A stretch of 64,000 nt of DNA from Alphaproteobacteria bacterium. Lineage in GTDB: Bacteria > Pseudomonadota > Alphaproteobacteria > CACZRW01. Positions within the stretch are counted from its first letter, which is position 1; each line of letters opens with the position of its first letter. The notes beneath the pieces are model-generated. The model was not told where the DNA came from. It saw only the letters and a list, made by a program, of their open reading frames with translations, and made no database searches. The DNA is taken from NCBI GenBank assembly GCA_017507765.1, contig JAFWAG010000032.1:20919-84918 (forward strand). The letters are read 5' to 3'. Positions 27,832 to 54,056 of the stretch are shown one piece after another. A program made the translations under genes and the position numbers.

Positions 27832-29070
27832 TTATTGGCTATTGCCTTCTTTGATAATCCGGACAATCTTCGGGCTTAATACCATGGCAATTTCCGAATT
27901 GGCGTATTGTGGTCCTAAGATATCCGAAGGTATGCCGATGATAAGGAAGTTATCACCGATTTCCGATGCAAAAGACGGGAAATTGGTTATTTCACCTTTG
28001 GTTGAATCTATGACCAAAGAACCAACAATCTTATCCGTACCTTCAACGGTAGCTTGCGCCAAAACCGATAATTGCGATTCCGGATTTTCTATCTTTCCGC
28101 AACGGCCAACATCAAAACGGGAACGCCAGTTATCCGGAACCATAAAGACACCTTCGGAAACCGGAACTACAGAAGCGTGCTGACCAACAAAATTCAAGAA
28201 ACGGCGAGTGCTGATTTCATTATTTTCCGTAATAATCATACGGCCGATAACGCCTTTGACACTGCTGCGTATGCTGTTCGTGCCATATTTATCAACCAGT
28301 TTCTGCCAATCTATGGTGGAAGTTCCAGCATAAGGAGTAATCCGGAAAACCCGTACATCAAAAGCAACAATGTTTGGTTCGGTATCAAAAACTTTTATCA
28401 GTTTTTCAACTTTCTGCTGAACTTCTTTGGTACCAAGGAAGGTGATGGTTTTATTATCCCAGTCGGCAACAACATCACGAATGCCCGCACCTCTTAATGC
28501 GTCCAGAACCGCAATCATAACCGGACGGGAATCAGGAACCTGTAATTTCCACTGGTTATGCCGCATAAGGCGAAGCGTTTTTGTTTCGGCATTATAGCGG
28601 TAATAAACACCCGAAGTGTTAGCAATATTATTCAAAACCGTACCAAGTTCGCCCTTCATATTTTTGCCGGACAAAACCGGATAAGGGCCTTTTTCCGCAA
28701 CGACTTTAATTCCGGCTTCCTTCACCAATTTTAAAAAGACTTTATCGGCACTTAATCCGGCGAAAGAAAATCCGGTTACTTCGTAACGAGGCAAGGCATC
28801 GGAAGCTCTGGCTCCGCTGAGTTTAAATGCAGACTGGCGGAAAGGAACCGTGGTGATGATGTCCTGTTCATTAAAACGGACAAAACAACGGCTGGCAGCT
28901 TCCAAACTAAACAACTCTGCCGTCTTGGTAGTGCGGGGAGCAAGCAATTTCGTATCTTTAAAAACTCCGGGAGCAACCGCATCGGCGGCAACTGTCTCGC
29001 TTGAAAAAACGGCTAAACCGGCAACCAATCCTAAAACGGCGAACAGTTTTTTATAAATCTTGTCTGACAT
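27832..29070 (-). CDS. Periplasmic/outer-membrane protein with a secretin-N (NolW-like) domain and a possibly degenerate secretin-like C-terminal motif
   Basis: 412 aa; signal peptide; segment VMIAVLDALRGAGIRDVVADWDNKTITFLGTKEVQQKVEKLIKVFDTEPNIVAFDVRVFRI fits the secretin N1 pattern (...D.rtNsli..g.......v..lI..lD....v.iev.i.ev); C-terminal GIPSDILGPQYANSEIAMVLSPKIV resembles the secretin C-terminal 'PiLG..F.....EL.vf.TP.iv' motif. Confidence 0.45.
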   Translation of the reverse strand: MSDKIYKKLFAVLGLVAGLAVFSSETVAADAVAPGVFKDTKLLAPRTTKTAELFSLEAASRCFVRFNEQDIITTVPFRQSAFKLSGARASDALPRYEVTGFSFAGLSADKVFLKLVKEAGIKVVAEKGPYPVLSGKNMKGELGTVLNNIANTSGVYYRYNAETKTLRLMRHNQWKLQVPDSRPVMIAVLDALRGAGIRDVVADWDNKTITFLGTKEVQQKVEKLIKVFDTEPNIVAFDVRVFRITPYAGTSTIDWQKLVDKYGTNSIRSSVKGVIGRMIITENNEISTRRFLNFVGQHASVVPVSEGVFMVPDNWRSRFDVGRCGKIENPESQLSVLAQATVEGTDKIVGSLVIDSTKGEITNFPSFASEIGDNFLIIGIPSDILGPQYANSEIAMVLSPKIVRIIKEGNSQ

Positions 29071-29244
29071 TTTTCGCTAATACCTCTTAAAAAACCATAG
29101 TCTTAAACTTTATAAATCCTGAAAACAGCCTCTAAACCTTCGGAGCGGACGAAGGCGCTCCCGTTACAACAACTTTCTTTATCACATTTCTTACCACATC
29201 AAGGTTCATAGATACAGTATTTTCTTTCGTAGTTTTTGCCATAT

Positions 29245-30150
29245 CTATGCGTCCGGAGCAGTATTGTTATCACTTGCCGGTTCAAAATCACCCAAATCCG
29301 GTATCGGTTCAAAGCCATCTGGAGCAGGACCGATTGGACCTTCGTCTTCATCTGTGGCCAAATCCCCCAAGCCGGCACGGATTTTTACAACATCAATCTC
29401 TTCATCAACCATTTCCGGAGGTGCGTTGTCGGCAAGTTCTTTTTTAAAGTCAGATAAAAGCTTGGCAAAAGCCTCTTCCTTGCCGGGGAACTTTGCATCA
29501 ACAATGGCTTTATAGTCATCATTATCGGAAATTGCTTCACCAAAGCCGACGATTTCGTCCAAAACGTCCAGAACATACCCATAATACTTATAATGGCTCA
29601 TTTCCATACCGCCAAGCTGAACACAGCGAGCGCCGACCCTTGAAATCGTTTGATCATAATAATCTTTAAGACGCATAAAATGGTCAAAGTTCCATAATAA
29701 TTCTTCCGAAAACTCCGGTGAAGGTTCCGGAACAGGTTCGTCGTTTACCGATGCTTGTGTTTCGCCTTCCGGCATATCGGCGACCAAAATCTTTAACTTT
29801 TCCGTAACGGCCTTGCCGGCGTCGCCGAAAATGGCAAGCCAATATTCCAAAACCGGCAGTCGTTCACTGATATGCGCTTTATCGACACCATCTGCTTCCA
29901 AAAGACGGTTGGCTTCGTCCCACGCCAAAACACCGTTTTCATAATCCAATGCCCGCTGGAAATTAGCTCTGGAAGTATCTCCGTCCGGCGGAGGAAGCTC
30001 GGCAAGCAAAGAAGGAATGATATCTCGCCAGTTGTTACCAAAGCTCTGCTCTGCCGCAGTGGACAAACGAGTCAAAACTTCTATGTCATCTTGATAAGCA
30101 AGAAGCAGAGGAATTAGCTGCGTCAGGGCTTTTCTTTCATCTTCGGTCAT
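29245..30150 (-). CDS. Hypothetical acidic cytoplasmic protein
   Basis: 301-aa ORF; strongly acidic (DE-rich) C-terminal third; no TM or signal peptide. Confidence 0.45.
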   Translation of the reverse strand: MTEDERKALTQLIPLLLAYQDDIEVLTRLSTAAEQSFGNNWRDIIPSLLAELPPPDGDTSRANFQRALDYENGVLAWDEANRLLEADGVDKAHISERLPVLEYWLAIFGDAGKAVTEKLKILVADMPEGETQASVNDEPVPEPSPEFSEELLWNFDHFMRLKDYYDQTISRVGARCVQLGGMEMSHYKYYGYVLDVLDEIVGFGEAISDNDDYKAIVDAKFPGKEEAFAKLLSDFKKELADNAPPEMVDEEIDVVKIRAGLGDLATDEDEGPIGPAPDGFEPIPDLGDFEPASDNNTAPDA

Positions 30151-30245: not shown

Positions 30246-33200
30246 CTATGCTGCTCGACCTAAATCCAATCGGACTTTTACACCTTTGGAAGAGGCAAAA
30301 ACCAAACATGGACCGGTAGCTTTCTTCCTTTTCTTTGATTTATCCTTTAACCAGAAAGATGCACCCGTATTTAAAGGCTTTTCTCGAACCGGAGAAATTA
30401 TAACTTTTTCGATAATCGTATTTGTGGCTAGGTTCTTATAATCGACAGGCTCGGAAATATCCTCTTCAGAAACGGCGGAGACAGTTTCGGCAGCAGTTTC
30501 TGTTTCCTTTGCTTCCGGCTCTTCTTTGGAGACAGTAACCGGTTCGCTTGCTTCTGCCTCAGGTTCTGTTTTCGGAACTACAGGCTCGTCAATTTGTACG
30601 GTCGGTTCATTTGCTGCTTCGGAGTAGTCAATATCAATAGCAACGGTTTGTTCCGGTATTAAAGGAATGGCCGAAGGACGCATCGGAGTTGCAAAAGAAA
30701 CCGGATCAAGCATTTCCATTTCTTCGTCAAAGATTAAATCTTCACTGGTAAGATTTTCATCAAAATACAAATCTTCGGGAAGAGGTGTGGCATAAGTCGA
30801 TGAAACATCGCTACCGAAGGAAGATATAACCTCATCAAGATAGGCATCAACCGTAAACTCTGCAGCATCGGCGGTATCAGCAAAGTATAAATCTTCTTTA
30901 ATCGGTTCCGGTTCGGGAACAACTTCTTTGACGGCTTCGACCTTGGGTTCGGATACAACAGGTACCGGTTCTTGGGCGGTTTCGGAAAGTGCCTCTTGTA
31001 TGGCTTCGACTTCTTCTACAGGTTCCGGCTCGGTGGCGGCAAGCTCTTCCGGTTCGGTTTCAAGAACGGGTATATCTTCTTGGGCGGCTTCAATCTCAGA
31101 TACCTGCGGTTCGGCTTGCTCATAAACAGCCTCTTCATCAGCACTTGCCTGCAAGGCTTCAAACTCTGAGGCAGAAACCGTGATTTCATTACCGTCTTGG
31201 TCAACGGTTATGTATTCGTATTCATACTCATATTCGGCATCATCGGAAACATCTGCTTCGCTTACAACTTCCTCTGCTGTTACCGCTTCAGCTGTGAAGT
31301 CAAGTTCTCCGGATTGGTCGTCAACATAAACAGTGTCTTCGCTTTCTTCCGTTTCGGCGGTAAGGGCGGCGGCTTCTATTTCTTCTGCGGTTTCGGCAGT
31401 TAAGGCAAAGCCATCATCTTTGGCAACCGGAGCTTCACTTATAACTTCCAGAACTTTTGCAGGTTCAGCCGTGAAATCAAGTTCGCCGGACTGTTCATCA
31501 ACAAAAACAGGCTCGGAAGGTTCTGCTTCGGTTTCAATGGCGGTTGAAGCAAGTTCTTCCTCTGTTTGCGGAGTTAAAGTAAAGCCGTCATCTTCGGCAA
31601 CCGGAGCTTTGGTATCATTTTCCGTGATAACTTCATATTCGACCGCTTCTGCTTCCGCTTCAAGTACAGGCTCCGGTTCAACTTCCGGCATCGCTTCGGG
31701 CAATGCTTCTTCCCAAACTGCTTCCGGTTCCGGCTCGGGTTCAGTGACGGCAAGCGGTTCCGGTTCGGGTTCGGCGGTCTCTTGTATGGCTTCGATTTCT
31801 TCTACAGATTCCGGCTCTGGTTCCGGTTCGGAGATTACTTCTTCCCAAACTTCTTCCGGTTCAGGTTCGGGTTCAGGCTTGGGCATTACCACGAATTCGT
31901 CTTCATCAAAAGAACCGTAATCCGGCTCTAAGTATGTATCATCGTACATATCCGAAGCGGAAATATCTTCTTCGTATACTTCTTCCGCCTCTGCGCTTTC
32001 CTCTTCAAAATCTTCGGCGCTGACGTATTCGTATTCAACGTTTTCACGTTCAACCATTTTTTCCAAAATGGAGCTTAAAACCTGACTGGTTTTTTCCTGA
32101 CTGGCAACCAACATTTCCATAACGTTGCGATTGTCATTACCCGCAGAGACCGGCAAACCGGTAACCACAGCCAAAGCATCAGAGACTATCTGCGCAGTCT
32201 TTTCCTGACTTTGGGCAAGCATAGCGGCAATTTCTTTGATTGCGGCGTCTTTATCTTCTTCCGGTTCGTCCTTTTCTTTACTGGCGGTTAAAGCATCGGA
32301 AATGATATGAGCGGTTTTTTCTTGGCTTTCGGCTAACATAGCCGCTATTTCTTTGATTGCGGCGTCTTTGTCTTCTTCCGGCTCGTCCTTTTCTTTACTG
32401 GCGGTTAAAGCGTCAGAAATAATCTTTGCGGTTTTTTCCTGACTTTCGGAAAGCATGGAAGCGACTTCTTTCAAGTCTTCGTTATGTTTTTCTTCCGGTC
32501 GGTTTAAGGTGGCTTTTACGGCTTCGGAAATAATTTGAGCCGTTTTTTCCTGACTTTCTGCCAACATATCGGCAAAATCATGGATATTTCCTCCGCTATC
32601 GCTTACTTGCACCGGAGGACGTTTAGTTAACGCTTCGCCCAAAGCTTTGGAGATAATTTCCGAAGTACTTTCCTGACTTTTTACCAAAGCATCGGCAACG
32701 GCGGAAGCTATGGCATCTGCGGTATTGCCCGCAGAAGCCATGGGAGGATAATAACCGTCGTCATATTCCTCTACATATTCGTATTCTTCGTCTTCATCGC
32801 CATCTTCGCCTTCTTCGGAGTTTTCATATCCTTCTTCATCGGAAACACCTTCGCCCTCTTCGTCTCCCTTTTTGCGTTTGCGGCGTTTTTTCTGATGAGC
32901 GGTAAAGAAATTACTTTGGGCTTCCTGTAATGCGGCGGTTATCTTGGTTATATCTTCAGCAGAAGCATTGCGGTTTTGCGCTGCGGCTAAGGTTTTAGTC
33001 AACTGTTCGACCTGAGCCATAGATTGCTCTTGCATCTTTTCTGCGGTCTGCTGATGACTTAAAGAAATGGCTTCCGCAATTATCTTTGCTCTGGCCTTTT
33101 CCTCTTCCAGTTTTTCTTCATCAATCTCTATCTCTTCTTCAACGACAATGCCTCGCTGTTCCTGAAGATAGGCAATATAACCACGAACGTCGGCACTGAA

Positions 33201-33431
33201 AGGAAGCTTAGAAAGCTCTTCCTTCGTTTCCGGCGTAATGTTTAAAAGCATTTCGTTATAACGTTCTTGAGCTTCGGGACTTAAAACCGAAAGCTGACGG
33301 AAGATATTTATAAACTTTTGAGCGCGATCACGGTTGGTTTCTGAGGTAGCTCCGTCTCCGCCCCCTTCGGTAACCCCGAGGAACTTCCTTTTCCAACGAT
33401 TTAAATCTGACAAACGTGTAGATTTAGCCAT
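30246..33431 (-). CDS. Giant highly acidic repeat protein (candidate secreted effector/surface protein) with a basic C-terminal tail
   Basis: 1061 aa; three internal repeat families (39-aa ESQEKTAxIISDAL units x6; about 60-aa xDDGFxLTxxTxEExxxxAxxTExEx...VDxQSGELDFTAE x2; EPEPEP tracts); C-terminus WLKDKSKKRKKATGPCLVFASSKGVKVRLDLGRAA is net positive. Confidence 0.55.
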   Translation of the reverse strand: MAKSTRLSDLNRWKRKFLGVTEGGGDGATSETNRDRAQKFINIFRQLSVLSPEAQERYNEMLLNITPETKEELSKLPFSADVRGYIAYLQEQRGIVVEEEIEIDEEKLEEEKARAKIIAEAISLSHQQTAEKMQEQSMAQVEQLTKTLAAAQNRNASAEDITKITAALQEAQSNFFTAHQKKRRKRKKGDEEGEGVSDEEGYENSEEGEDGDEDEEYEYVEEYDDGYYPPMASAGNTADAIASAVADALVKSQESTSEIISKALGEALTKRPPVQVSDSGGNIHDFADMLAESQEKTAQIISEAVKATLNRPEEKHNEDLKEVASMLSESQEKTAKIISDALTASKEKDEPEEDKDAAIKEIAAMLAESQEKTAHIISDALTASKEKDEPEEDKDAAIKEIAAMLAQSQEKTAQIVSDALAVVTGLPVSAGNDNRNVMEMLVASQEKTSQVLSSILEKMVERENVEYEYVSAEDFEEESAEAEEVYEEDISASDMYDDTYLEPDYGSFDEDEFVVMPKPEPEPEPEEVWEEVISEPEPEPESVEEIEAIQETAEPEPEPLAVTEPEPEPEAVWEEALPEAMPEVEPEPVLEAEAEAVEYEVITENDTKAPVAEDDGFTLTPQTEEELASTAIETEAEPSEPVFVDEQSGELDFTAEPAKVLEVISEAPVAKDDGFALTAETAEEIEAAALTAETEESEDTVYVDDQSGELDFTAEAVTAEEVVSEADVSDDAEYEYEYEYITVDQDGNEITVSASEFEALQASADEEAVYEQAEPQVSEIEAAQEDIPVLETEPEELAATEPEPVEEVEAIQEALSETAQEPVPVVSEPKVEAVKEVVPEPEPIKEDLYFADTADAAEFTVDAYLDEVISSFGSDVSSTYATPLPEDLYFDENLTSEDLIFDEEMEMLDPVSFATPMRPSAIPLIPEQTVAIDIDYSEAANEPTVQIDEPVVPKTEPEAEASEPVTVSKEEPEAKETETAAETVSAVSEEDISEPVDYKNLATNTIIEKVIISPVREKPLNTGASFWLKDKSKKRKKATGPCLVFASSKGVKVRLDLGRAA
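31291..31610. repeat. Two about 145-bp degenerate direct repeats (176-bp period) inside the acidic giant gene
   Basis: Copy 1 at 31291-31437 and copy 2 at 31467-31610 (agc(t/c)gtgaa(g/a)tcaagttc(t/g)ccgga...ggcaaccggagctt). Confidence 0.55.
32100..32720. repeat. About 5-6 tandem copies of a 117-bp (39-codon) repeat inside the acidic giant gene
   Basis: Recurrent ...gcggttttttc(c/t)tg(a/g)ctttcgg(a/c)(a/t)a(g/a)catagc(g/c)gc(a/t)atttctttgattgcggcgtcttt(a/g)tcttcttccgg(t/c)tcgtccttttctttactggcggttaaagc(a/g)tc(g/a)gaaat...; the two central copies are near-identical and the outer ones degenerate. Confidence 0.6.
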
Positions 33432-33512
33432 CTCGTTCTCTAATAAACCAAGCCTTAAACTTTAACCGCTTCTTGATTCTAAAGGAAAGAAAGTTAACAT
33501 ATGGTAATTTTA

Positions 33513-33546
33513 ATAAAAAAACCTCTTGAATCAGAGGTTTTTTTTA
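33513..33546 (-). terminator. Rho-independent terminator after the HTH regulator gene (symmetrical, usable in both directions)
   Basis: AAAAAAA-CCTCT-tgaatc-AGAGG-TTTTTTTT: 6-bp GC stem extended by A/U pairs and flanked by T-runs on both strands. Confidence 0.55.
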
Positions 33547-33568
33547 TAAAGATATGTAAGTTTAAAAA

Positions 33569-34636
33569 TTAAGCCAGCGAAATGTATACGATTTTATGCA
33601 AAACTTCACCGGCAGAGATTTTTACTCTTTCGTCCGGATTAAGCTGAAGACCATAGATATTTCCTTCGCCATCTTCTCTCAGGCTGAGCAATTTTACCGT
33701 ATTTTCCGCAGTGTATAACAGACCGAGGTCTCCGGGACCTGCCTCTTTACCGGGGTCAACAACAAATATCGCCCGAGCCGGAAGGAAAGTTCCCAAACGG
33801 CGAGAGGAAGATATGCTGACTGCATAGGCTTGATGCGGGTTAGAAACGGACGGAGGACACATGATTGCACCGGACGGATTGTTTTTATCAATAATGATAT
33901 CTCCGTTATCACCAGGTTTGCCGTAAACATTTAAGGAAACTTCACTGCGTTCCCGAGATTTAAGCCCCATACGGCCAATCGGCAAATCAGCGTAAGAGTT
34001 CTTTGCCGAAGTTACGGCACGGAACTTTGCATCTCCGGGCTGAATAAACTCTTCCAAAGCTCCGGTCTTATCCAAATCATAGACTTTGAGCTGAAGCTCT
34101 TCCGGTGTAAAACCAAGTGCCAAGGAAATATCCGAAAACTCTTTTTGGGTAACTTCTCTTTGACCCATTTCTATCCGGTGGTAAACCGAAAGCGTCAAAC
34201 CGGCTGCCGCTGCAACTTCCGCCAAAGTTAAATCCTTTTGCCCGCGAAGATAACGGAAACCGGCACCCATAGTCTTTATACCGCTTCGTTCATTGATTTT
34301 GCTGCGACGTTCCTGTTCTTGCCGCCAAGCAGCTACGACTTCCGGCTGAGACGTGGCTTCGTTGACAAAAATGTCCTGAGGATTGCATTTCAGAAAATCC
34401 GCAACTCTGACTAATTGCTCTTTATCTATCCGGCGGTATCCTTTTTCAATTTTGCTGACCGCAGAAAGGCTGATGCCTAAGAAATCGGCAAGCTCCTGCA
34501 TCGAAAGATTGCGGATACGGCGATATATTCTTATCTGGTTCGGAAATATAATTTCTTCCATGGTTCTTCCCCTTAATGATAAATCATGCAAAAACCCTTT
34601 TAAACACGGGATTTTATGCCGTAACTTTAACAGCAA
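33569..34636 (-). CDS. Transcriptional regulator with two XRE-type HTH domains and a C-terminal LexA/CI-like (peptidase S24-like) domain
   Basis: 355 aa; HTH1 IRIYRRIRNLSMQELADFLGISLSAVSKIEKG; HTH2 FRYLRGQKDLTLAEVAAAAGLTLSVYHRIEMG; C-terminal beta-rich segment ending ...TVKLLSLREDGEGNIYGLQLNPDE...GEVLHKIVYISL resembles the S24 fold, but the canonical GxSM Ser motif is not obvious. Confidence 0.6.
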   Translation of the reverse strand: MLLKLRHKIPCLKGFLHDLSLRGRTMEEIIFPNQIRIYRRIRNLSMQELADFLGISLSAVSKIEKGYRRIDKEQLVRVADFLKCNPQDIFVNEATSQPEVVAAWRQEQERRSKINERSGIKTMGAGFRYLRGQKDLTLAEVAAAAGLTLSVYHRIEMGQREVTQKEFSDISLALGFTPEELQLKVYDLDKTGALEEFIQPGDAKFRAVTSAKNSYADLPIGRMGLKSRERSEVSLNVYGKPGDNGDIIIDKNNPSGAIMCPPSVSNPHQAYAVSISSSRRLGTFLPARAIFVVDPGKEAGPGDLGLLYTAENTVKLLSLREDGEGNIYGLQLNPDERVKISAGEVLHKIVYISLA

Positions 34637-34680
34637 TTTGACAAAAATCCAGTAATTTTCTCAAAAAATTAGCGAAAAAA

Positions 34681-36387
34681 TTATGAATTGCGATCTGCTT
34701 CGTCGTTAAAGTGGCGATTCCAACGGTCGGCAGCATTGCGGGCAATGTTCTTAGCGCTAAATCTTTGCTTGGCAGAGGTTTTAAACTTATCTTTAAGATT
34801 TTCGCCAAAATTATTCTGAATATTCTTAAGGTTATCCTTAACTCTTTGCGGAGCGGCAGCAATATTATTTCCAAACGTTTTAACCTTATCTCCGGCGAAG
34901 TCTTTAAACTGTTTCGGCATGGCTTTAGCCCGACTTTTAGCATCATTAGCAAACTTCTTCACCGAAGCTCTGGCAGCTGCTCGTCCAGACTTGGTAGCCA
35001 AAGAAGTTATTGCTTTAGCGGCTTTGGCGGCACCGGCTGCCGCAGTGGCCGCTCCCTTGGCAGCAAAACCGACAGCTGCCGCACCACCCGTAGCAACCGT
35101 GGTCGCAAGCATGGCAACCGTAACCGCCGCCTGAACGGTGGTGGTAACCATGGCCGCCATTTTTGCGCCCACAGCCGCACCGATATTCGTACTTTGCAAT
35201 TGGGAATCAATGGAAACAAAATGGTTGGCTACGGCTTCCGACTTACTTAACAACATTAAAGCGATAATAGCGATAGCGAGGAATAAAAGCCAATCTACAC
35301 CATTGACATAAATATGCTGATATAACTGCTGAACCTGATCATTATTTAACATACTGTCAAGCTCTTCGGAACGGCCGATAGATTCCATAACTATCTTTAA
35401 AATCAACGCCATGCCTATGGCAAGAGCAAGCAATGCGACCAGTGCGTGCAGGAATAAATCCCAAGCTTTCTTCGTATACTTCCGTGTTATCGGGAAAACC
35501 CATGCGACCATAAGCAACGGCAACAGCATGGTTACAAAGCTGATACGAATGACAAAATCGATAACTCGGAAGGAAAAGCTTAAAGTAATTATAAAGAAAA
35601 CCAGCATTACCAAGAGACCGATAACAAACATACCCATATCGGGAATCTTGATTATCCACAAGTCTACTCGTCCCATGGAATAGCAATAAATACAGTTGCC
35701 GAGTGCGGTTCCTTTGGCGGCTTCTATATACATAGAGCGAATTACACAGCTTAGAGCGCTTTTAATCTGAGGAGACAGCGCCAGATGAGAAGAAGAGTCT
35801 CCGTAAACAACGTTGCCTTTTGAATCATATGAAATCGAAGAGCTTTCAGAGTTCTGAAACTGTTGGCAAATATCGTTTTTGATAAGTCCGGAAGCAATCG
35901 CAGTATCCGCACTTTGGACATTTAAGTCCGTAGATAAAATCCCCAAAGTAAGCTCTGTCGCCATGGAAACTACCGGCGAAACGACAAGGTCAAAAGCCTT
36001 TTGCGTCGGAATGGTCAAAATCGCAGCTATTAACGTCGTACGGAAAAAACATTTACCGATTTCGGTGAAAAAACCTTCCGGAGCTTGATACTTATAATTC
36101 ACAAAATACATACCGAAATGCCACAGTATCCAAAGCCCTAAACCAATTATCAGCAAATATAAGGACGGTTTTTTCAACGTGTTGTAACAAGCCGTAACAA
36201 CATTGTTGACGGCATCAAAAATCATATCGACAAAGGTACAAATAAGACAGCTGCTATAAAGCTCTGACATTACTTCGGTAGCTGTTTTACACGCAGCATA
36301 AGCAGAATCGGGAAACAAGCATACGCAGACAAGCGCAATTGCAAACGCTATTTTTCCGACCGTATTTTGTCCCTTTTTCGTAAACAT
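34681..36387 (-). CDS. virB6: VirB6/TrbL-like type IV secretion polytopic membrane protein, paralog 5
   Basis: 568 aa; signal peptide; CxxC motif (SSCLICTFVDMIFDAV) followed by a W-rich TM (GLGLWILWHFG) as in the four paralogs upstream; about 6 TM; Lys/Ala-rich hydrophilic C-terminal tail. Confidence 0.65.
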   Translation of the reverse strand: MFTKKGQNTVGKIAFAIALVCVCLFPDSAYAACKTATEVMSELYSSCLICTFVDMIFDAVNNVVTACYNTLKKPSLYLLIIGLGLWILWHFGMYFVNYKYQAPEGFFTEIGKCFFRTTLIAAILTIPTQKAFDLVVSPVVSMATELTLGILSTDLNVQSADTAIASGLIKNDICQQFQNSESSSISYDSKGNVVYGDSSSHLALSPQIKSALSCVIRSMYIEAAKGTALGNCIYCYSMGRVDLWIIKIPDMGMFVIGLLVMLVFFIITLSFSFRVIDFVIRISFVTMLLPLLMVAWVFPITRKYTKKAWDLFLHALVALLALAIGMALILKIVMESIGRSEELDSMLNNDQVQQLYQHIYVNGVDWLLFLAIAIIALMLLSKSEAVANHFVSIDSQLQSTNIGAAVGAKMAAMVTTTVQAAVTVAMLATTVATGGAAAVGFAAKGAATAAAGAAKAAKAITSLATKSGRAAARASVKKFANDAKSRAKAMPKQFKDFAGDKVKTFGNNIAAAPQRVKDNLKNIQNNFGENLKDKFKTSAKQRFSAKNIARNAADRWNRHFNDEADRNS

Positions 36388-36396
36388 TTTCTTCTC

Positions 36397-36618
36397 TTAT
36401 GCGTCCTTTTCTTCGGCGGTTTCTTTAGGTTGAAGAGACGGAAGCTTAGCCTTCTTTGTCTTCCAAGTCAGCCATCCGGCGGCAGCAAAACTTAAAATTA
36501 TCACTGCTCCGGAGGTTATATAAACCAACCTGCTGTCAAGCAATCCGGAAAGTCCGGTTGCTCCAAAAATAATTATCAGAACTATAAAACTAAGATAGTA
36601 TACCAGATTTCTTAACAT
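36397..36618 (-). CDS. Small 2-TM membrane protein embedded in the virB6 array (possible VirB3/VirB2-like accessory subunit; unassigned)
   Basis: 73 aa; two hydrophobic helices then a charged tail; tight spacing (20 bp after paralog 4 stop, 9 bp before paralog 5 start). Confidence 0.4.
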   Translation of the reverse strand: MLRNLVYYLSFIVLIIIFGATGLSGLLDSRLVYITSGAVIILSFAAAGWLTWKTKKAKLPSLQPKETAEEKDA

Positions 36619-36638
36619 CTTAGTCCCCTTTTTTCCAA

Positions 36639-38099
36639 TTACGGCTGAGCATTATTGCCTCCGCCTTTTTTCATTGCCGCCAACATGGCTAAACCAACAC
36701 CGCCTTGAGCTATCAATGCACCCGCTCTCATAAGGCGGCTCATCGCCTTACTGAATACCGCCGAGTTTGCTTTTGCTCCCGCAAACTGCGCCGCCATGCG
36801 GTTCATCGTGCCGATAAGCTTTATCAAATAAAGACCCAAGAATATCATCAAAAACATAGCTATCGGGAAGTTAAGGTTCGATTCAACAAACTTTGGATTG
36901 GCATCAATAATCTTTCCCGTCTCCATATAGCATATATCACCTACGGAACTTTTATCTCCGACCATAAGCTCATCAGATACACATTTCCAAAGGCTGTCGG
37001 ATTTATAGCCAACTACGCAAGTTTCCTTTTCTTCACCAATAGTGGTTTTATATTTTATACAGGTTCTGGGCATAACAACGCCAGAGGACGGATCCAACAT
37101 TTCATCTTGTCTGGAAACATATCCTTGTAAAACTTCCGGTTGATTCAAAATCAGCTTTTCCGGATCAAAGATATCCAGCTTCATAGTAAACTGTACCATG
37201 ATTTCTATCGCTAAGATTAGGAAGATAGCTATCATCACTATTTGCATAAACGTGGATAGGAAAATGTTCCAACCGACAATGGCGTATTGCCGCAAAAGCT
37301 TAAACGGCCAAAAGGCGATAAATATCGGCAGTAAGACAAATGCAATGCCAAGCTTGAACAAGCCGTCAACAATATAAAACGGGAAAAGAAAGTTCAAAAC
37401 ACCGAAAACAAGGAAGATGCAAATACCGAAAACTACGGCAATAAAGTCTCCGCTAGCTATCATTTTCTGGGCAAAAAAGTTACCGTACACCATGCGGGTA
37501 TGCATCTTTGCTATCAGACAGGAAAACGCATCGGATACGCCTTGCTGTAAAGCGTGGCCGCTGTCAATAACCATACTGTCAAAGGTATTGTTACAAGCAC
37601 TGTAATTAGTTCCATAACTGCCAAAACCGGAATTGATTACCGCCAGCGATAAATCAATAAATCCTTGGAAGACCGGCACAATCGTATAGCTTATCAGAGC
37701 AAAAATCGTATCTGCGCTCATCAGCAAAACGCCGCAGCATAAAACCGCAAAACTGGTTTTAAGCGAGTCGGTCCAGAACTGATTAACATCAGGCATTTTA
37801 TAGCTTAAAAACAATTTGCCGACATGGAAGAGTATCCAAATCGCAAAGCTTATCGCCATTAAAGCAAGCGCACCGTTCGCTATTTCATGATAAAAGACGA
37901 TAATCAAACTGTCCAAAGCGGCAAAAATCGTTTTGAAGATTGAGCAGCTCCAACAATGGCTCATATAGTCTTTTTCCAGTTCTTCCAAAGAAACGTCATA
38001 ATCCTTTGGGTTGCAGCCGGACAAAAGCAAGCAGGCTACTATTCCCACAAACAGGAAAAGCAGTTTAAAAAGCATCTCTTTTTTTTGTTTTTTATCCAT
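36639..38099 (-). CDS. virB6: VirB6/TrbL-like T4SS membrane protein, paralog 4 (lipoprotein-type signal peptide)
   Basis: 486 aa; LLSGC lipobox; MSHCWSCSIFKTIFAALD motif; multiple TM. Confidence 0.65.
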   Translation of the reverse strand: MDKKQKKEMLFKLLFLFVGIVACLLLSGCNPKDYDVSLEELEKDYMSHCWSCSIFKTIFAALDSLIIVFYHEIANGALALMAISFAIWILFHVGKLFLSYKMPDVNQFWTDSLKTSFAVLCCGVLLMSADTIFALISYTIVPVFQGFIDLSLAVINSGFGSYGTNYSACNNTFDSMVIDSGHALQQGVSDAFSCLIAKMHTRMVYGNFFAQKMIASGDFIAVVFGICIFLVFGVLNFLFPFYIVDGLFKLGIAFVLLPIFIAFWPFKLLRQYAIVGWNIFLSTFMQIVMIAIFLILAIEIMVQFTMKLDIFDPEKLILNQPEVLQGYVSRQDEMLDPSSGVVMPRTCIKYKTTIGEEKETCVVGYKSDSLWKCVSDELMVGDKSSVGDICYMETGKIIDANPKFVESNLNFPIAMFLMIFLGLYLIKLIGTMNRMAAQFAGAKANSAVFSKAMSRLMRAGALIAQGGVGLAMLAAMKKGGGNNAQP

Positions 38100-38118
38100 G
38101 CTTTACTTTCCTTTACAG

Positions 38119-40581
38119 CTATGACCGAGTTGCTTCCGAAGCTTTAATTGCGCTCTGATAATTTGCGAATTGAGTTTCACTCATCGTCAGAACCCGCTTT
38201 ACATCTTCACTGCCGTTAGCAATCCGTTCATAAACCTTTTGCTCTTCATAGGTAGTGGCCGTGCCTTGGCGGACTTTTGCCACTAAGTCTACATCATTTT
38301 TCATTTTATAAAAACTGTTGCCGTCAAGAGCGTTCATTTCCGCAAGACGCTGCTCGGAAGTCGTTCCGGTTATACCGTAAACTTCGCCTTTATAAACCAA
38401 AGCCTCTCTTTCCGCTGCGGACATTCTTTCAACCGCATCGGCACCGTAAACATTGCGGAGTATTTGAGCATTTCTATATGCTTGTTCGGCACTGTTTACC
38501 CCACCAATACCTTCGTTATAGATACTGTTGGCATTGGCATTACGACGCAAAGCAATTTTTGCCTGTAAAGATTCCCGGGTGGAATAAGAACCGTCTACAT
38601 TTAAGGCTTTCTTCGCCAATTCGATATCCTGCGGTACGGCATTAAAAGAAGCACTGTTCATACCGGCGTATCTTGAAGTTTTTGCATCGGCAACATAGGT
38701 ATTATATCCGGCGCTTGAAGCACTGCCGGAACCTGAACCTCCGCCTGCCCCACCACTGCCGGAGCTGGAAGAGCCGCCGCCTTTATATCTTTGTTTAGGT
38801 GCAGCGCCCATAGAGCTAATCATACTCCGGCTAGCACGCCAGTTGGCTAAACGACCGTTGCCTTTTTGAGATTCCAGAACTCCCATTGTCGCAGAGGCTT
38901 GGGTTACAACCGCAGCGACATTGGCGCTTACCATGCCTAAGCGGTCGCCAATGTCTGAGCCTATGGAAACGTTGGAAAAGTCTGTCGCAATCTGATCAAT
39001 CAAAGATAAAATCTTTATGGCAAAAACACAGCAAATAGCCGCAATGATGAAGTTAAAGGTGGAAAATTGTATTGCTTCATTCATTTTGTATACTTGGTTC
39101 GTGTTAAAGTAATCCTGCAAGGTTGAGGCTTCTTTTAGAAGCGTACTGCTGGATATGGTTTCACTGTTACCGCCAAAAGCTATTTCCACCAAAGCTATCG
39201 CTAATGACAAGACTATAGCCATGGAAATAAATACCATCACGACATGAAGCAAAAGATAGAAACCTTTTTTCGCAAACTCTATCGTTGGCGGAAATACCCA
39301 CGCAACAATTAACATCGGCAATAAAACCAATAAAAATCCCAACCGGAAACAAGCGTCTATCAGTTTAAAGACAAAAAGCAATGTCAAAAGGAAACAAACT
39401 AGCCAAATGACAACGCCCGTAAACAACATTTTAAGACTGGGGAATTGAACCGGTAAAATACCGGACTGTTCCGCCGTCCAAGCATGGCATAAAATCGAAG
39501 ATGACATGGCAAGTCCATAGGCGGTAGTATTATATAAATTACCGACCATACACATAAGTGCGTTATAAAGCTGACTGTTCAAAGCGGCGTTTTCCGTGCC
39601 GGACGGTTCGGTTTCCATAAGAACACAATAATGCGGAAGCATACTTACACCCAGAAGACCTATAATAGCATCGTTCTGGTCTTGCTCCATAGCTTGAATC
39701 TCGCTCTCTTTCTTTCTATCTAAGTCATGGATAGCCGCCTGACAATGGACAGAAAGCGTACAGGCTCCTTCCGGAGGATTGGCTTTACATTCGTTACATT
39801 CTGCTTTTTGTTTCGCATTCATTAATATATCCAACCCACCACATGGAGAAGCACAGGCATAACGAGCGTACACTTCGTTCTTTTGCAAGCGGTATTTTTC
39901 TTCTATCTGTTGCCTTTCCACCTGATAATTACGGTCTAAGTCGGAAATCTGGTCAGCGTTGGGACGTATCTTATCCGTTCCGGTAAAGCCTTGGGTAACC
40001 GCCATGCTGACTTCTGTCGCTCCGACAATTATGGGCGAAATCAATAAATCCGTAACCATGCTGACCGGCTGAACAAGGATTGCTCCGGCAAGCATTGCTT
40101 TGCACAAAATGGAAATAATGCCTTCAAAAAACTCAACCGGATTTTGTTCCGCCAGAGAACCGATATACCTGCCGACCTGAATAATCAGCCAAATACCAAG
40201 GAATACAGTTAAAATCTCTATACAGCCATGGGCTATTTTGTTGTAAACCGCCGTGGCTAAGGTGTTAATTGAACGGAAAATCGTATCAAATAAAGTACAC
40301 GCCCAACAATTATTGACATGAGCAAGCAGAACCGAACCGCTTGCCGGACAGTCGCCGTGCAAAGCATCACTGTAAACTGCGGCGGATTGCCCAATGTCTT
40401 GAGCCCCTTCGGTGATAATTTCGTTGGCTCCGCTGACAACGTCATCAACGGTTTCTGTTTGCGTCTCGGTCGTATACTGCGTACCGGTTGTCTGAGCAAA
40501 GACAGGAGCGGACATCAGCCATAAAGCTATGGCTGCGCATGATATAGCCTTGATAAAAAATGTCTTTGGCAATTTTATCAT
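38119..40581 (-). CDS. virB6: VirB6/TrbL-like T4SS membrane protein, paralog 3, with long Gly/Ser-rich hydrophilic C-terminal extension
   Basis: 820 aa; signal peptide; VNNCWACTLFDTIFRSIN motif; about 6 TM; C-terminal GGGSSSSGSGGAGGGSGSGS plus about 200-aa hydrophilic tail. Confidence 0.65.
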   Translation of the reverse strand: MIKLPKTFFIKAISCAAIALWLMSAPVFAQTTGTQYTTETQTETVDDVVSGANEIITEGAQDIGQSAAVYSDALHGDCPASGSVLLAHVNNCWACTLFDTIFRSINTLATAVYNKIAHGCIEILTVFLGIWLIIQVGRYIGSLAEQNPVEFFEGIISILCKAMLAGAILVQPVSMVTDLLISPIIVGATEVSMAVTQGFTGTDKIRPNADQISDLDRNYQVERQQIEEKYRLQKNEVYARYACASPCGGLDILMNAKQKAECNECKANPPEGACTLSVHCQAAIHDLDRKKESEIQAMEQDQNDAIIGLLGVSMLPHYCVLMETEPSGTENAALNSQLYNALMCMVGNLYNTTAYGLAMSSSILCHAWTAEQSGILPVQFPSLKMLFTGVVIWLVCFLLTLLFVFKLIDACFRLGFLLVLLPMLIVAWVFPPTIEFAKKGFYLLLHVVMVFISMAIVLSLAIALVEIAFGGNSETISSSTLLKEASTLQDYFNTNQVYKMNEAIQFSTFNFIIAAICCVFAIKILSLIDQIATDFSNVSIGSDIGDRLGMVSANVAAVVTQASATMGVLESQKGNGRLANWRASRSMISSMGAAPKQRYKGGGSSSSGSGGAGGGSGSGSASSAGYNTYVADAKTSRYAGMNSASFNAVPQDIELAKKALNVDGSYSTRESLQAKIALRRNANANSIYNEGIGGVNSAEQAYRNAQILRNVYGADAVERMSAAEREALVYKGEVYGITGTTSEQRLAEMNALDGNSFYKMKNDVDLVAKVRQGTATTYEEQKVYERIANGSEDVKRVLTMSETQFANYQSAIKASEATRS

Positions 40582-40672
40582 CGCTTTGTCCTTTTAAAAA
40601 GCCTCCTATCCTTCAAATATTATAACCTTTTTCCCGTTCCTTTAGTATGACAGTTTTTTGATTCCTATCCCT

Positions 40673-42715
40673 TTATGGAGTAACCATATCCTGCTCTCTG
40701 GCATACTTTGTGTAATCTAATCTGTCTTTAGCACTTGGAACAGCATCTCTTATTTCATTAATCTTATTAACATTCTTGGAGAATGATGCCTGTTCTTCCG
40801 GCGACAAACGATCATAATAACGTTGTTTAAGCTTCTGATATTCAAGCTTTCCTTCAAGCTTGTCCAGTCTTTCACGAGCAGCGTCTTGAGCCTCTGGTGA
40901 ATGTCTGCCGCTGGTATCGTTAATAATCATCATCTGATCCGACATTTCTTTAACCCTCTTAAAGTCGTCTTCGGCTATATTCAACAAAGAGGCGTTATGA
41001 GAATTAAACTTGCCGGTAGATTGATTATACAATACATCGTCCATTAATTTTGCTTGATAATTAGGAATATCAGGCTTAGTTCTTTCGGGTTCCGTATCAT
41101 TATGAGTATCCGGAACAACATCTTTCTTCGATGAAGACGACGATTTACTGTTCTTTACGCTTATCGCCATAATCGTTGCCGTAGCTTGCAGAGTCGTTGC
41201 CGTTACATAAGAAGCCATAGCACCGACTTTATCTCCTGCCTGCGAGCCAAACTCTACTTCCGTGTATTCACTGGCGGTTTTATCAACAACGTTCATTACC
41301 TTTACGCCAAAGAAACAGCAGGCAAAGGCAAAGAAGAACGATGAGCCGGATAAATCCATAGCGTCCCTAAGGCCTTGGATATCGTTAAGCATACACATCT
41401 GCCGCAAGTTTTCGTTTTCAAGCTCGAATGCCGTTATAAGCATAAGTATTGCCAAGGCTATGACTATCGCCAAGACAATGAAGTTCATCATAACATGAAC
41501 CAACATCTTGAAGCCTTGTTTCGCATAGTTCATAGATGACGGGAAAACCCATGCGACAATCAAAAACGGTAAAACTGAAGCTAAAATACCCAAACGAATA
41601 AGTGCGTCCAATACTTTGAAAACAAAGACAACCAAAATTATCAGACAGGTAAGCCAAATCATAATACCGGATATCAGCATAACAAAATCCGGACCGTTAA
41701 AGAAGAAATACGATGCTGCGTGCCAAGATTTACAAATAATCGCAGACGCAAACGCCATACCAAACGATACTTCTTTGTGTATCATCTCGGTCAAACACCC
41801 AAGAGCATTATAAATCTGCGTGTTAAGCATACGGCCTTCGTCCATATCCGGCTCTGCCAACGAAAGAGAACAACCGCTCATGGTCGCAAATGACGGGGCA
41901 GCAGAAAGGTTTTCGTAGGCGTCCATTTCTTCAAGCCACCTTAAAACGATACCAAACGCCGCATGGGTATTTATACCAAGAGGAAGAGTCAACGGGAAAG
42001 AAGAATAAATGTCGGCGGTAAACTGTCCGGTTTCCGATATTAAACGCCACATATTGCGCTGGTCTTTGGAAATCGCATCATAAAAAAGCGGCTTATCAAG
42101 TTCGGTTTTCCGGCTAAGCGTTTCCGTGGTTTCATCAAGTCCGGCATAGCTTTTTATAATAACTTGGTTAAACTCTACCGCTCCGACGACAATCGGCGAA
42201 ATCAACAGGTTGGATACATAGCTTATCGGCATGGTTAAAAGCGCACCGGCAAACATGGCTTTGAACAATGTCTTGCCCATTTTCGTCCAAAAGTCAGCAG
42301 GCTCTTGCGGACTGAAAGACATAAGATGTTTGCCAAGGTGATACAAAAGCCAAAGTCCAAGCAAAACCGTTAAAACCATCCGGCTTGGTCCGGCGGTAAG
42401 TTCATAAACTCCGGTACTTACCGTATCAATGGCATCAAAAATCTTTTCCACCAAAAAACAAGACCAACAGTTTGATACATGGTCGGCAACAATCTGGCTG
42501 CAAGTATCACAGTCGCCCAAAATTACTTTAACGACATTGTCATACATATCGTTAATGTTGGCGCCCATCCGGATTAAAGACAGGAACGTATCACGCAGAA
42601 TATTAACATCGGCAACTTCATCGGCGGCAAAAGAGCGCAAAGGAGCAAGAACAGAAGCAACAAACGCCGCAACTGCCGGAAGATATCTTTTAATGATGTT
42701 TTTCATTATCATCAT
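40673..42715 (-). CDS. virB6: VirB6/TrbL-like T4SS membrane protein, paralog 2, with hydrophilic C-terminal extension
   Basis: 680 aa; signal peptide; VSNCWSCFLVEKIFDAID motif; multiple TM; about 170-aa charged C-terminal tail. Confidence 0.65.
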   Translation of the reverse strand: MMIMKNIIKRYLPAVAAFVASVLAPLRSFAADEVADVNILRDTFLSLIRMGANINDMYDNVVKVILGDCDTCSQIVADHVSNCWSCFLVEKIFDAIDTVSTGVYELTAGPSRMVLTVLLGLWLLYHLGKHLMSFSPQEPADFWTKMGKTLFKAMFAGALLTMPISYVSNLLISPIVVGAVEFNQVIIKSYAGLDETTETLSRKTELDKPLFYDAISKDQRNMWRLISETGQFTADIYSSFPLTLPLGINTHAAFGIVLRWLEEMDAYENLSAAPSFATMSGCSLSLAEPDMDEGRMLNTQIYNALGCLTEMIHKEVSFGMAFASAIICKSWHAASYFFFNGPDFVMLISGIMIWLTCLIILVVFVFKVLDALIRLGILASVLPFLIVAWVFPSSMNYAKQGFKMLVHVMMNFIVLAIVIALAILMLITAFELENENLRQMCMLNDIQGLRDAMDLSGSSFFFAFACCFFGVKVMNVVDKTASEYTEVEFGSQAGDKVGAMASYVTATTLQATATIMAISVKNSKSSSSSKKDVVPDTHNDTEPERTKPDIPNYQAKLMDDVLYNQSTGKFNSHNASLLNIAEDDFKRVKEMSDQMMIINDTSGRHSPEAQDAARERLDKLEGKLEYQKLKQRYYDRLSPEEQASFSKNVNKINEIRDAVPSAKDRLDYTKYAREQDMVTP

Positions 42716-42723
42716 TTCAACCT

Positions 42724-44454: not shown

Positions 44455-44622
44455 TACTTTATACTGTCCCCATTTTTACACTTTAATTTTATTATAATAC
44501 GAAAAAATGACAAGAAGTATGACACTTTTTTGATTTTCTTTTTTGAGAGATAATTTTGCTGGGAAAAAATTAAAACTACTTTAATATGTATTTTATAGAT
44601 TAACTTCCGTTAAAAGACCTTT
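44455..44622. promoter_or_regulatory. AT-rich divergent promoter region between the virB6 array (-) and a hypothetical gene (+)
   Basis: 168-bp AT-rich gap; palindromic ATTATAAT at 44491-44499 gives a TATAAT -10 on either strand about 35 bp upstream of the virB6 paralog-1 ATG; -35 elements are weak. Confidence 0.25.
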
Positions 44623-53078: not shown

Positions 53079-54056
53079 TCAGGTAACTTCGGTAACTGCT
53101 CTTATATTACCTTCGCGGTTTATTTGTACAACCCTTAACTTTTCATGCATTTCCTTGATGGTTTTGGCTCGGTCAATGGTCGGATAACTATGCAAAATAC
53201 GGTCTGTAAAGGCTTTGTAGGCTGCTTCGGAGTTTTCTGCATGAATGGTCGCAAAACAGTTTTCATGGCCGGAACCCATAAGCTCCCATAAAGCACCCGC
53301 ATTTGCCGTGGAAATCTCTCCGCCGATAATTGCGTCCGGCGTAAAACGAACAACCAAGTCAATAATCTTCGGATAGGTTAAATTGTTGGTTTGCTCCGTT
53401 CGGGATAAAACCAAGTGAACTCGGTTTAAATGAGGGACTATCAATTCGCGCGTATCTTCAATCGTAACAATACGCTTACTGGGTTCCAAGATTTTTAAAA
53501 GATTGTTCAAAAACGTTGTTTTACCGGTTGCCGTTGCACCGCTGACCAAAATATGGTCGCCACGTTTTATCGAAAACATAAGACGTTCAAACGGGTCTTC
53601 CGGTTCCGCCATATGCGCCAACGGATTTAATTGATGAAGCTTTTCACCTTTGCGAAGACCGTAATCGCCAAAGCCAAACTTTACATCTTCGGTATGAACA
53701 CGCACACACATTGCAACACCGCCGGTCAAATCTTCATTGTCATACATGACATTACGACCGGCAATTGCCGAAAAACGGTGGTCTCCGGGAAGGGTAGCAT
53801 AAACTACCGGCGTTCCTCTGTCCGGATCAAAGGGAAGTTCATACGTATTCGCAATAATATGAATAATATCATTTAAATATGTACGGGAAAGGTTTGCATC
53901 TTGCTGACAAACCCAAGGAATAGCTCTGCGGCCACGCAAACGGAGCCAGATTTCCCCCGGGCGGTTAACCGATATTTCTTCCACATTATCTTGGCTGTAC
54001 CAATAGGAAAGATAACGCAAAGTAGATTCAAGAACTTTAAAATTAGAATCCGTCAT
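53079..54056 (-). CDS. virB11: Type IV secretion ATPase VirB11
   Basis: 325 aa; Walker A ILVSGATATGKTTFLNNLL; Asp/His boxes; typical VirB11 length; 39 bp downstream of virB10. Confidence 0.9.
   Translation of the reverse strand: MTDSNFKVLESTLRYLSYWYSQDNVEEISVNRPGEIWLRLRGRRAIPWVCQQDANLSRTYLNDIIHIIANTYELPFDPDRGTPVVYATLPGDHRFSAIAGRNVMYDNEDLTGGVAMCVRVHTEDVKFGFGDYGLRKGEKLHQLNPLAHMAEPEDPFERLMFSIKRGDHILVSGATATGKTTFLNNLLKILEPSKRIVTIEDTRELIVPHLNRVHLVLSRTEQTNNLTYPKIIDLVVRFTPDAIIGGEISTANAGALWELMGSGHENCFATIHAENSEAAYKAFTDRILHSYPTIDRAKTIKEMHEKLRVVQINREGNIRAVTEVT

Follow-up and report, generated by a model that had tools for sequence, protein, structure and literature searches.

Why should a gene for a phage-repressor-like protein lie beside an array of virB6-like genes on a bacterial chromosome, and what could the protein do there? 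The locus that raises this question lies in a stretch of 64,000 nucleotides (nt) from Alphaproteobacteria bacterium (assembly GCA_017507765.1, contig JAFWAG010000032.1, positions 20,919 to 84,918); the whole stretch is called the window below, and the gene in question and its product are called the regulator. An earlier interpretation made from the letters and translations alone (the sequence-only reading) had proposed an autocleavable CI/LexA-type repressor that either controlled a neighboring type IV secretion system (T4SS)/effector block or was the remnant of a mobile element in a reduced intracellular genome. The results described here point, with moderate confidence, to a non-autocleaving CI/LexA-class chromosomal regulator that controls its own gene and probably acts on the flanking secretion genes.

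The listed open reading frame (ORF; 33569..34636, minus strand) extends for 355 aa from a TTG codon. MEEIIFPNQIR was the N-terminus of 12 fetched homologues and of a 26-sequence alignment, with a 10-residue extension preceding it in two, and a GGGGAAG Shine-Dalgarno sequence was found 5' of the ATG at 34561. Because the homologues all begin with MEEIIFPNQIR, the ATG at 34561 was taken as the start, and the TTG at 34636 was rejected as a mechanical extension of the ORF. The product therefore has 330 aa, and 119 nt, in place of the 44 bp given in the sequence-only reading, separate its start codon from the upstream stop (34681).

Two HTH_3 helix-turn-helix (HTH) domains were identified by Pfam at residues 10-63 and ~98-156 (E 7.7e-25), with a PF01381 score of 87.1 bits over two stretches against a cut-off of 23, which places the regulator in the XRE/Cro-C1 HTH group. 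The two domains were 26% identical to each other (BLASTP, E 3e-7), consistent with an old internal duplication. NCBIfam, PHROGs, and PADLOC returned generic HTH matches only and no membership in a defense system or named regulator family; the PHROG matches were repressor families, through the HTH only. The coding sequence and its domains are as follows.

33569..34561, minus strand: regulator coding sequence, 330 aa plus stop, placed by homologue starts and intact at 321-331 aa in 83 copies
34373..34534, minus strand: HTH domain 1 (HTH1), XRE/Cro-C1 type, residues 10-63, Pfam HTH_3, mean column conservation 0.94
34094..34270, minus strand: HTH domain 2 (HTH2), XRE type, residues ~98-156, second stretch of the Pfam HTH_3/HTH_31 match
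33572..33940, minus strand: C-terminal LexA/CI-type (S24-like) beta domain, residues ~208-330, from the AlphaFold2 model, Foldseek, the domain profile, and the MAFFT alignment

The C-terminal domain was recognized by its predicted fold. An AlphaFold2 model built on 26 homologues (mean predicted local distance difference test score [pLDDT] of 77.6, and 80-92 across most of the C-terminal domain) showed both HTH units as helical, little order in the linker at residues 178-206, and a beta-rich domain from residue ~208. The top Foldseek match in the PDB was 2HO0, the C-terminal fragment of lambda CI (E 2.2e-6; target template modeling score, 0.72; root mean square deviation, 3.3 Å over 127 columns), with 2HNF close behind, followed by full-length CI, LexA (3K2Z and 3JSP), and UmuD (8GMT), so that the LexA/signal-peptidase-like beta fold characteristic of Peptidase S24 was present. 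Among viral models (BFVD), phage CI/LexA-like repressors ranked highest; several of these were 290-340 aa long and aligned over >330 columns, and therefore the doubled-HTH CI-type architecture probably exists in phages too.

Sequence searches reached the same family by an indirect route. Pfam gave no Peptidase_S24 (PF00717) match to the regulator at an E value of ≤1 and nothing beyond the two HTH_3 domains, no S24 match was found among solved structures by phmmer (whole protein) or hmmsearch (profile of the C-terminal domain) against the PDB, and hhalign gave no match of the family to Escherichia coli LexA and a weak one to lambda CI (46% probability, 53 columns, residues 160-212). An exhaustive HMMER search with the profile of the C-terminal domain over 1.84 billion representatives returned 132 proteins, and among the 10 of these that were scanned against Pfam, P0180 and P0184 were true PF00717 members (E ~1e-12). 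The fold match and this transitive sequence homology underlie the assignment as S24-like. The architecture of two XRE HTH domains and an S24-like domain, as described in the sequence-only reading, was thus upheld, and its concern that no S24-like fold might be detectable proved unfounded.

The catalytic positions were compared in a MAFFT alignment of the C-terminal domains of the family, eight other profile matches carrying an S24-type G-x-S/T-M motif (P0180 and P0184, confirmed by Pfam, among them), and E. coli LexA, lambda CI, and UmuD; the last three, like the LexA and CI sequences used with hhalign, were entered by hand. Residues were counted by column in 81 distinct family sequences. The column of the catalytic Ser (G-x-S-M) was occupied by Arg255, the second Arg of a T-R-R-L-G motif, in 81 of 81 sequences, and the column of the catalytic Lys, residue 292, was occupied by Ile (35), Leu (29), Val (16), or Met (1) and never by Lys; hhalign independently placed CI K192 opposite the same Leu as MAFFT did. 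The scissile Ala-Gly column corresponded to residues 219-220, with Asp or Asn (plus two Gly and one Glu) followed by an invariant Gly. The codons concerned are listed below.

33797..33799, minus strand: Arg255 codon in the catalytic Ser column (LexA S119, CI S149), Arg in 81/81 and within an invariant R-R-L-G
33686..33688, minus strand: Leu292 codon in the catalytic Lys column (LexA K156, CI K192), I/L/V/M in 81/81
33902..33907, minus strand: Asn219-Gly220 codons, aligned with the LexA/CI scissile Ala-Gly, D/N at 219 and invariant Gly at 220
33692..33694, minus strand: Lys290 codon (the "VKLL" Lys), two residues before the catalytic column and variable

Thus, none of the catalytic features of Peptidase S24 (Ser nucleophile, Lys base, and Ala-Gly or Cys-Gly bond) was found, and judged by these columns the S24-like domain is catalytically dead. 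The sequence-only reading had correctly noted that the canonical Ser was not evident but had offered the Lys of VKLL as the catalytic Lys; that candidate was rejected, for K290 lies two residues upstream of the column and varies among the 81 sequences (Lys, 51; Arg, 22; Gln, 4; Ser, 2; His, 1; Met, 1). Its autocleavable repressor gave way with it, the equivalents of Ser, Lys, and Ala-Gly all being replaced by invariant or consistently non-catalytic residues. The invariant Arg in place of the nucleophile is, together with the position of the locus, the main point of interest of the regulator.

Similar degeneration was seen in more distant relatives. In several single-HTH proteins, for example, P0173, P0166, P0195, and P0146, x-R/T-L-G/E replaces S-M-x-P, and the regulator is therefore part of a wider set of non-catalytic S24-like regulators. 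Degenerate S24-like domains with the motif R-A-T-L-G-G-G-L-P were found in Sphingomonas and other Alphaproteobacteria (P0350, P0173, and P0166), so the family is wider than the gut lineage described below. P0350 (Sphingomonas sp. metagenome-assembled genome [MAG], 353 aa), the only protein returned by a homology search from the Sphingomonas relative P0173, has the same architecture of two HTH domains and a dead S24 domain. The N-terminus of one such protein with two HTH domains, IVFPNRLRELRR, recalls MEEIIFPNQIR.

When GTDB representatives, one genome for each species, were scanned, 386 stretches proved to encode a relative, and all 80 of the matches listed came from MAGs of uncultured gut, rumen, or fecal Alphaproteobacteria, for example, Acetobacter sp. 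CAG:977, Proteobacteria bacterium CAG:495, "uncultured Azospirillum," and Candidatus Scatocola. The lineage of these hosts is presumably GTDB order RF32. Literature searches turned up nothing relevant to this gut lineage or its T4SS. The regulator was intact in 83 of 83 extracted copies (321-331 aa), with pairwise identities down to 50% (86% for the copy in locus L003), and therefore it is not a pseudogene in relatives; the sequence-only reading had itself named pseudogene status there as damaging. Column conservation was highest in HTH1 (0.94) and was 0.70 in the C-terminal domain. In addition, the window encodes RNase E, an AmiC-type amidase, a U32 peptidase, a KdsB-like cytidylyltransferase, and a PAS-GGDEF protein. 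The locus lies in ordinary chromosome, with no indication of an obligately intracellular, highly reduced genome; the gut and rumen MAGs among the relatives and the housekeeping functions in the window lend no support to the intracellular setting assumed earlier.

The gene order around the regulator was conserved. In tblastn comparisons of the window neighbors with the 80 loci, most had the order VirB6/TrbL-like array, regulator, homologue of an acidic 1061-aa protein, p301, p412, and p627. The neighbors in the window are as follows.

34681..36387, minus strand: last of five VirB6/TrbL-like paralogues, 568 aa, upstream neighbor of the regulator, paralogous to the 680-aa protein (E 1e-34)
34681..44454, minus strand: five tandem VirB6/TrbL-like paralogues (576, 680, 820, 486, and 568 aa, plus a 73-aa ORF)
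30246..33431, minus strand: acidic repeat protein, 1061 aa, downstream neighbor, N-terminal part conserved beside the regulator in most relatives
27832..30150, minus strand: p301 and p412, the most persistent neighbors by synteny, both kept in the distant locus L084
27832..29070, minus strand: p412, a lineage-specific protein with a signal peptide and no Pfam match, a secretin by predicted fold
53079..54056, minus strand: VirB11-like T2SSE ATPase, beyond the array
54096..62591, minus strand: giant protein of 2831 aa, beyond the array
62588..63997, minus strand: CagX/VirB9-like protein with a SPOR domain, beyond the array

Pfam matches of the 680-aa protein and two other array members to TrbL/VirB6 fell just below the gathering score. 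The five-paralogue array recalls the rvh arrangement of Rickettsiales. In clade-B loci (L001/L002, 6115..9834), the gene directly upstream of the regulator encodes a protein of 1239 aa with Peptidase_M23 and type VI secretion system VgrG3-like C-terminal domains, a peptidoglycan hydrolase and not a plain VirB6-like protein. On the other side, the acidic repeat-protein gene does follow the regulator, as the sequence-only reading had stated; only the N-terminal 60-300 residues of its product are conserved in relatives (24-76% identity), and the rest, with its internal repeats, diverges fast. The product of p412, 100% identical to the NCBI hypothetical protein IKD08_03100 (Alphaproteobacteria bacterium), is a secretin by its modeled fold (pLDDT, 81.8; predicted template modeling score, 0.74; Foldseek matches to PilQ, InvG, BfpB, and GspD at E ~4e-9). 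It is unusual in a T4SS for a secretin to accompany VirB6-, VirB9-, and VirB11-like genes.

In a subset of loci (e.g., L039, L043, L044, L047, L051, and L077), the regulator was opposite in orientation to one or both blocks and abutted p627 instead of the acidic-protein gene; most of these loci still held VirB6-like genes upstream of it. Upstream of the distant family member P0126 (locus L084) there was no VirB6-like gene but unrelated small genes, and downstream of it there were p301- and p412-like genes (E 3e-18 for the first; 32% identity and E 5e-77 for the second). The gene for P0141, also a distant member, comes after dnaB on its contig, which is short. Because of this synteny, the P0126 locus included, p301 and the secretin-like protein are the most persistent partners of the regulator, and by the same comparison of gene orders the VirB6-like array is an addition on its other side in the gut lineage. 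The conserved neighborhood expected of a local regulator was found both in most of the 80 loci and in L084.

The transcriptional signals around the gene are listed below.

33515..33544, either strand: bidirectional terminator-like hairpin, A7-CCUCU-loop-AGAGG-U7, after the regulator stop, from folding and positional conservation
34620..34649, minus strand: conserved block GATTTTTGTCAAATTGCTGTTAAAGTTACG in the 5' region of the regulator, candidate promoter overlapping a candidate operator
33490..33507, minus strand: block TTACCATATGTTAACTTT before the acidic-protein gene, with a TGTTAAC core, conserved among the window, L003, and L004
34653..34671, either strand: palindrome TAATTTT-N5-AAAATTA, just past the stop of the upstream gene, a weak candidate
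44551..44572, either strand: second copy of the palindrome, TAATTTT-N8-AAAATTA, upstream of the first VirB6-like gene, partly conserved in L003

To judge from these signals, the regulator is apparently transcribed as a unit of its own under a conserved control region, since it has its own conserved promoter block and its own terminator. The hairpin at 33515-33544 had a folding energy of -15.7 kcal/mol (z -4.6), and L003, L004, and clades A and B had equivalent hairpins in the corresponding position. A pattern-based terminator scan missed it, presumably because the stem absorbs the T-run. The strong bidirectional terminator of the sequence-only reading was therefore real and conserved in position, although "strong" was generous for a short stem with a G+C core of 5 bp that A:U pairs lengthen. 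In several clade-A loci, a clear terminator after the last VirB6-like gene was followed by TTGTAT-N17-TATAAA. The possibility that the regulator is the last cistron of a virB6 operon was rejected in view of these clade-A terminators and its own promoter block.

That block is shared by the window and L003 as GATTTTTGTCAAATT(G/A)CTGTTAAAGTTACG at 34620-34649, with differing flanks, and is partly conserved in L004. By our own reading, made with no tool, it contains a candidate extended -10 promoter (TGnTAAAGT) overlapped by a candidate operator (TTTGTCAAA / CAAATTG, with small TTTG-N-CAAA palindromes). Between the block and the Shine-Dalgarno sequence, the 5' leader (34575..34618, minus strand) holds a small hairpin with a U-run, AAAATCCC-GTGTTTAAAA-GGGTTTTT, which is probably not essential because it is absent from L003. 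In an alignment of the regions upstream of the gene in 52 clade-B loci, an analogous and far better sampled block of ~45 bp was found in which most columns were conserved in at least 90% of loci; it reads ATTTGTACACAAATTGTCTTTTTTTGTACTA..ATTTTCTTGATTAAT (also given as ATTTGTACACAAATTGTCTTTTTTTGTACTA-ATTTTCTTGATT) and ends in a -35-like TTGATT. In most of these loci its 16-mer core was confined to that region, and what few matches lay elsewhere were scattered and had 2-3 mismatches. A TTTGT-N2-ACAAA palindrome and three TTGT(A/C) repeats 10-11 bp apart were concentrated in the bin from -100 to -200. Read in reverse complement and with 2-3 mismatches, the 16-mer also occurs inside the regulator coding sequence of L066, L071, L081, and L082 (~10721-10736), in VNLCTR codons, which is probably a coincidence.

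Operator searches covered the window and the 20-kb relative loci (regulator ±10 kb), with comparison of the intergenic regions 34562-34680, 33432-33568, and 44455-44622. No second site for the clade-B 16-mer, its palindromes, or the triple TTGT was found within ±10 kb, and inverted-repeat enrichment across 82 upstream regions was dominated by one clade and does not constitute independent evidence. The sequence-only reading had suggested that palindromic operators might be shared between the 33.4-33.6 kb and 44.45-44.62 kb regions. One palindrome was common to 34653 and 44551; its TAATTTT/AAAATTA arms, 4-9 nt apart, occurred twice in the 64 kb, with none expected by chance, but the pattern was chosen post hoc from those two regions, and a rough estimate by our own arithmetic puts the chance at ~1e-3. 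It is a weak operator candidate. Upstream of the acidic-protein gene, the conserved element reads TTACCATATGTTAAC (ATTA-N7-TTAAC) in the window, a perfect TTAA-N7-TTAA in clade A, and TTGTTAACC in clade B, lying in the last two ~40-80 nt past the terminator of the regulator, and the block that contains it is probably the promoter region of that gene. We take this element to resemble a CtrA box, unlike anything in the promoter of the regulator, and the resemblance suggests cell-cycle or CtrA control of the downstream block.

How might such a protein work? The C-terminal domain of lambda CI and LexA is a dimerization and oligomerization module, and the dead S24 domain of the regulator would play the same part, a dimer presenting four HTH units. 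The regulator would bind the conserved block over its own promoter and so regulate itself; autoregulation is the usual explanation for a conserved control region at a CI/XRE gene. In clade B, the target would be the TTGT(A/C) half-sites, about one helical turn apart and running into the -35 element. Beyond its own gene, the regulator would act locally on the flanking secretion-system operons, and this is plausible because the synteny is strongly conserved. To that extent the earlier proposal of control over the T4SS/effector block is still a plausible one, although the searches found no shared operator conserved in relatives. Self-cleavage by the canonical, RecA-stimulated mechanism should be impossible, and therefore any inducing signal would have to act differently; a partner protein or an anti-repressor could convey it, as could an external protease or a ligand bound in what used to be the active-site cleft.

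Several points weigh against this reading. The binding sites are candidates only, and some factor other than the regulator could occupy the conserved promoter block. Neither k-mer nor palindrome searches found an element common to the promoters of the regulator and its neighbors and conserved in relatives, the arms of the shared palindrome were degenerate at both sites in L003, with its 86%-identical regulator, and the promoter of the acidic-protein gene carries the CtrA-box-like motif instead. Furthermore, near-invariance of HTH1 (0.94) across sequences down to 50% identity fits a regulator of many targets better than a strictly local one. Dimerization through the C-terminal domain is proposed by analogy with CI and LexA, and the regulator may be either a repressor or an activator.

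The best-surviving alternative, unlikely but deserving of weight, is that the protein is a global or cell-state regulator with targets across the genome, whose position has been kept by history or because the neighbors are some of its many targets. The near-invariant recognition region of HTH1 fits such a role, as do the occurrence of the same architecture in free-living Sphingomonas (P0350), the absence of a VirB6-like upstream neighbor from P0141 and P0126, and the failure to find an operator common to the regulator and its neighbors. Set against these are its place beside the p301/p412 block in most of the 80 loci, the rearranged ones included, and in the remote P0126 locus; the view of any regulon was limited to 64 kb and the 20-kb loci.

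A bolder extension of the local role, which we consider improbable, makes the regulator a master switch dedicated to an unusual envelope machine of this gut lineage, composed of the five VirB6-like proteins, the VirB9- and VirB11-like parts, and the secretin. The dead S24 domain would then be a receiver, its invariant Arg-Arg-Leu-Gly in the former active-site cleft binding a partner peptide, a secreted substrate, or an anti-repressor; the four HTH units of a dimer would read the half-site array at its one-helical-turn spacing, and the status of the machine would be coupled to transcription.

Far less probable is a leftover immunity repressor of a prophage, integrative and conjugative element, or plasmid that once carried the VirB6 cluster, the "remnant" of the sequence-only reading. 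The phage-repressor architecture, the phage CI/LexA-like proteins at the top of the BFVD matches, and the HTH-only PHROG repressor matches all recall such an origin, but the gene is intact in all 83 copies at 50-86% identity, has 386 matches at one genome per species, lies in conserved synteny, has RNase E, AmiC, and KdsB-like genes close by, and had no integrase, relaxase, or phage genes among the window ORFs scanned. An ancient origin from a mobile element is conceivable but would not make the gene a remnant. A CI/LexA-type repressor that still cleaves itself in an SOS/RecA response, by means of the VKLL Lys and some unrecognized Ser, can be practically dismissed, for although the fold and a Ser-rich SISSSRR beside the catalytic column (Cys or Ser at residue 252 and Thr or Ser at 253 family-wide) might favor it, the Ser column is invariantly Arg, the Lys column is hydrophobic, K290 is unconserved, the scissile Ala is Asp or Asn, PF00717 gave no match, and the C-terminal profile finds no S24 sequence in the PDB.

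The conserved secretion locus of this common uncultured gut lineage is largely without annotation, and the favored non-autocleaving chromosomal regulator is the sole regulator recognizable in it and a practical entry point to when the secretion machine is expressed; the protein speaks neither for a mobile element nor for SOS control.

Among known systems, Wmk (WO male-killing, from the Wolbachia prophage) resembles the regulator in having two XRE HTH domains in one polypeptide and an alphaproteobacterial source, but it has no S24-like domain, and the regulator scored 32.6 bits against the Wmk model NF047948 (cut-off, 300), with one HTH matching, and so falls outside that family. By possible function, the nearest precedent would be the small XRE-family regulators EcxR, ApxR, ErxR, and wBmxR1-2 of Rickettsiales vir (T4SS) genes (PMC3518464, PMC9657007). 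These are XRE HTH proteins that control T4SS operons in Alphaproteobacteria whose genomes carry VirB6 arrays; they are, however, ~11-12 kDa proteins with a single HTH and no S24-like domain, whereas the T4SS link of the regulator is a putative one. A phmmer search of the PDB gave no significant match of the regulator to the 2O38-type fold family.

With lambda CI, LexA, and UmuD (MEROPS S24, PF00717), the regulator shares the fold of the C-terminal domain and the arrangement of N-terminal DNA-binding and C-terminal beta domains; its strand-loop VYGxxGxxG aligns with the cleavage-site region, and the distant sequence relatives of its C-terminal domain are true PF00717 members. It differs in having Arg for Ser, Leu/Ile/Val for Lys, and no Ala-Gly, and in lying below Pfam detection; in addition, the HTH of LexA is winged and CI has only one HTH, in contrast to the two XRE HTH domains of the regulator.

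The closest characterized analogue, by its published description, is RogA (CCNA_00080) of Caulobacter crescentus, which represses the gene transfer agent (GTA) activators gafYZ and has an HTH and an S24-like domain without key catalytic residues (PMC9632790). Both proteins are alphaproteobacterial and chromosomal and combine an N-terminal HTH with a C-terminal S24 domain that is LexA/cI-like but without the catalytic residues, and RogA is a direct repressor (PMC9632790). RogA has 213 aa and one HTH, in contrast to the 330 aa and two HTH domains of the regulator; it acts on GTA regulation and not on a secretion locus, in another genomic context; and it binds GGAA-N4-TTCC, a motif absent from the intergenic regions here, the four matches in the window all lying inside long ORFs and none near the regulator. 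The regulator is of the non-catalytic CI/LexA-like kind already known from RogA, new in its duplicated HTH, and it places a well-sampled, lineage-wide example of a pseudo-peptidase of the CI/LexA type beside the single characterized alphaproteobacterial case.

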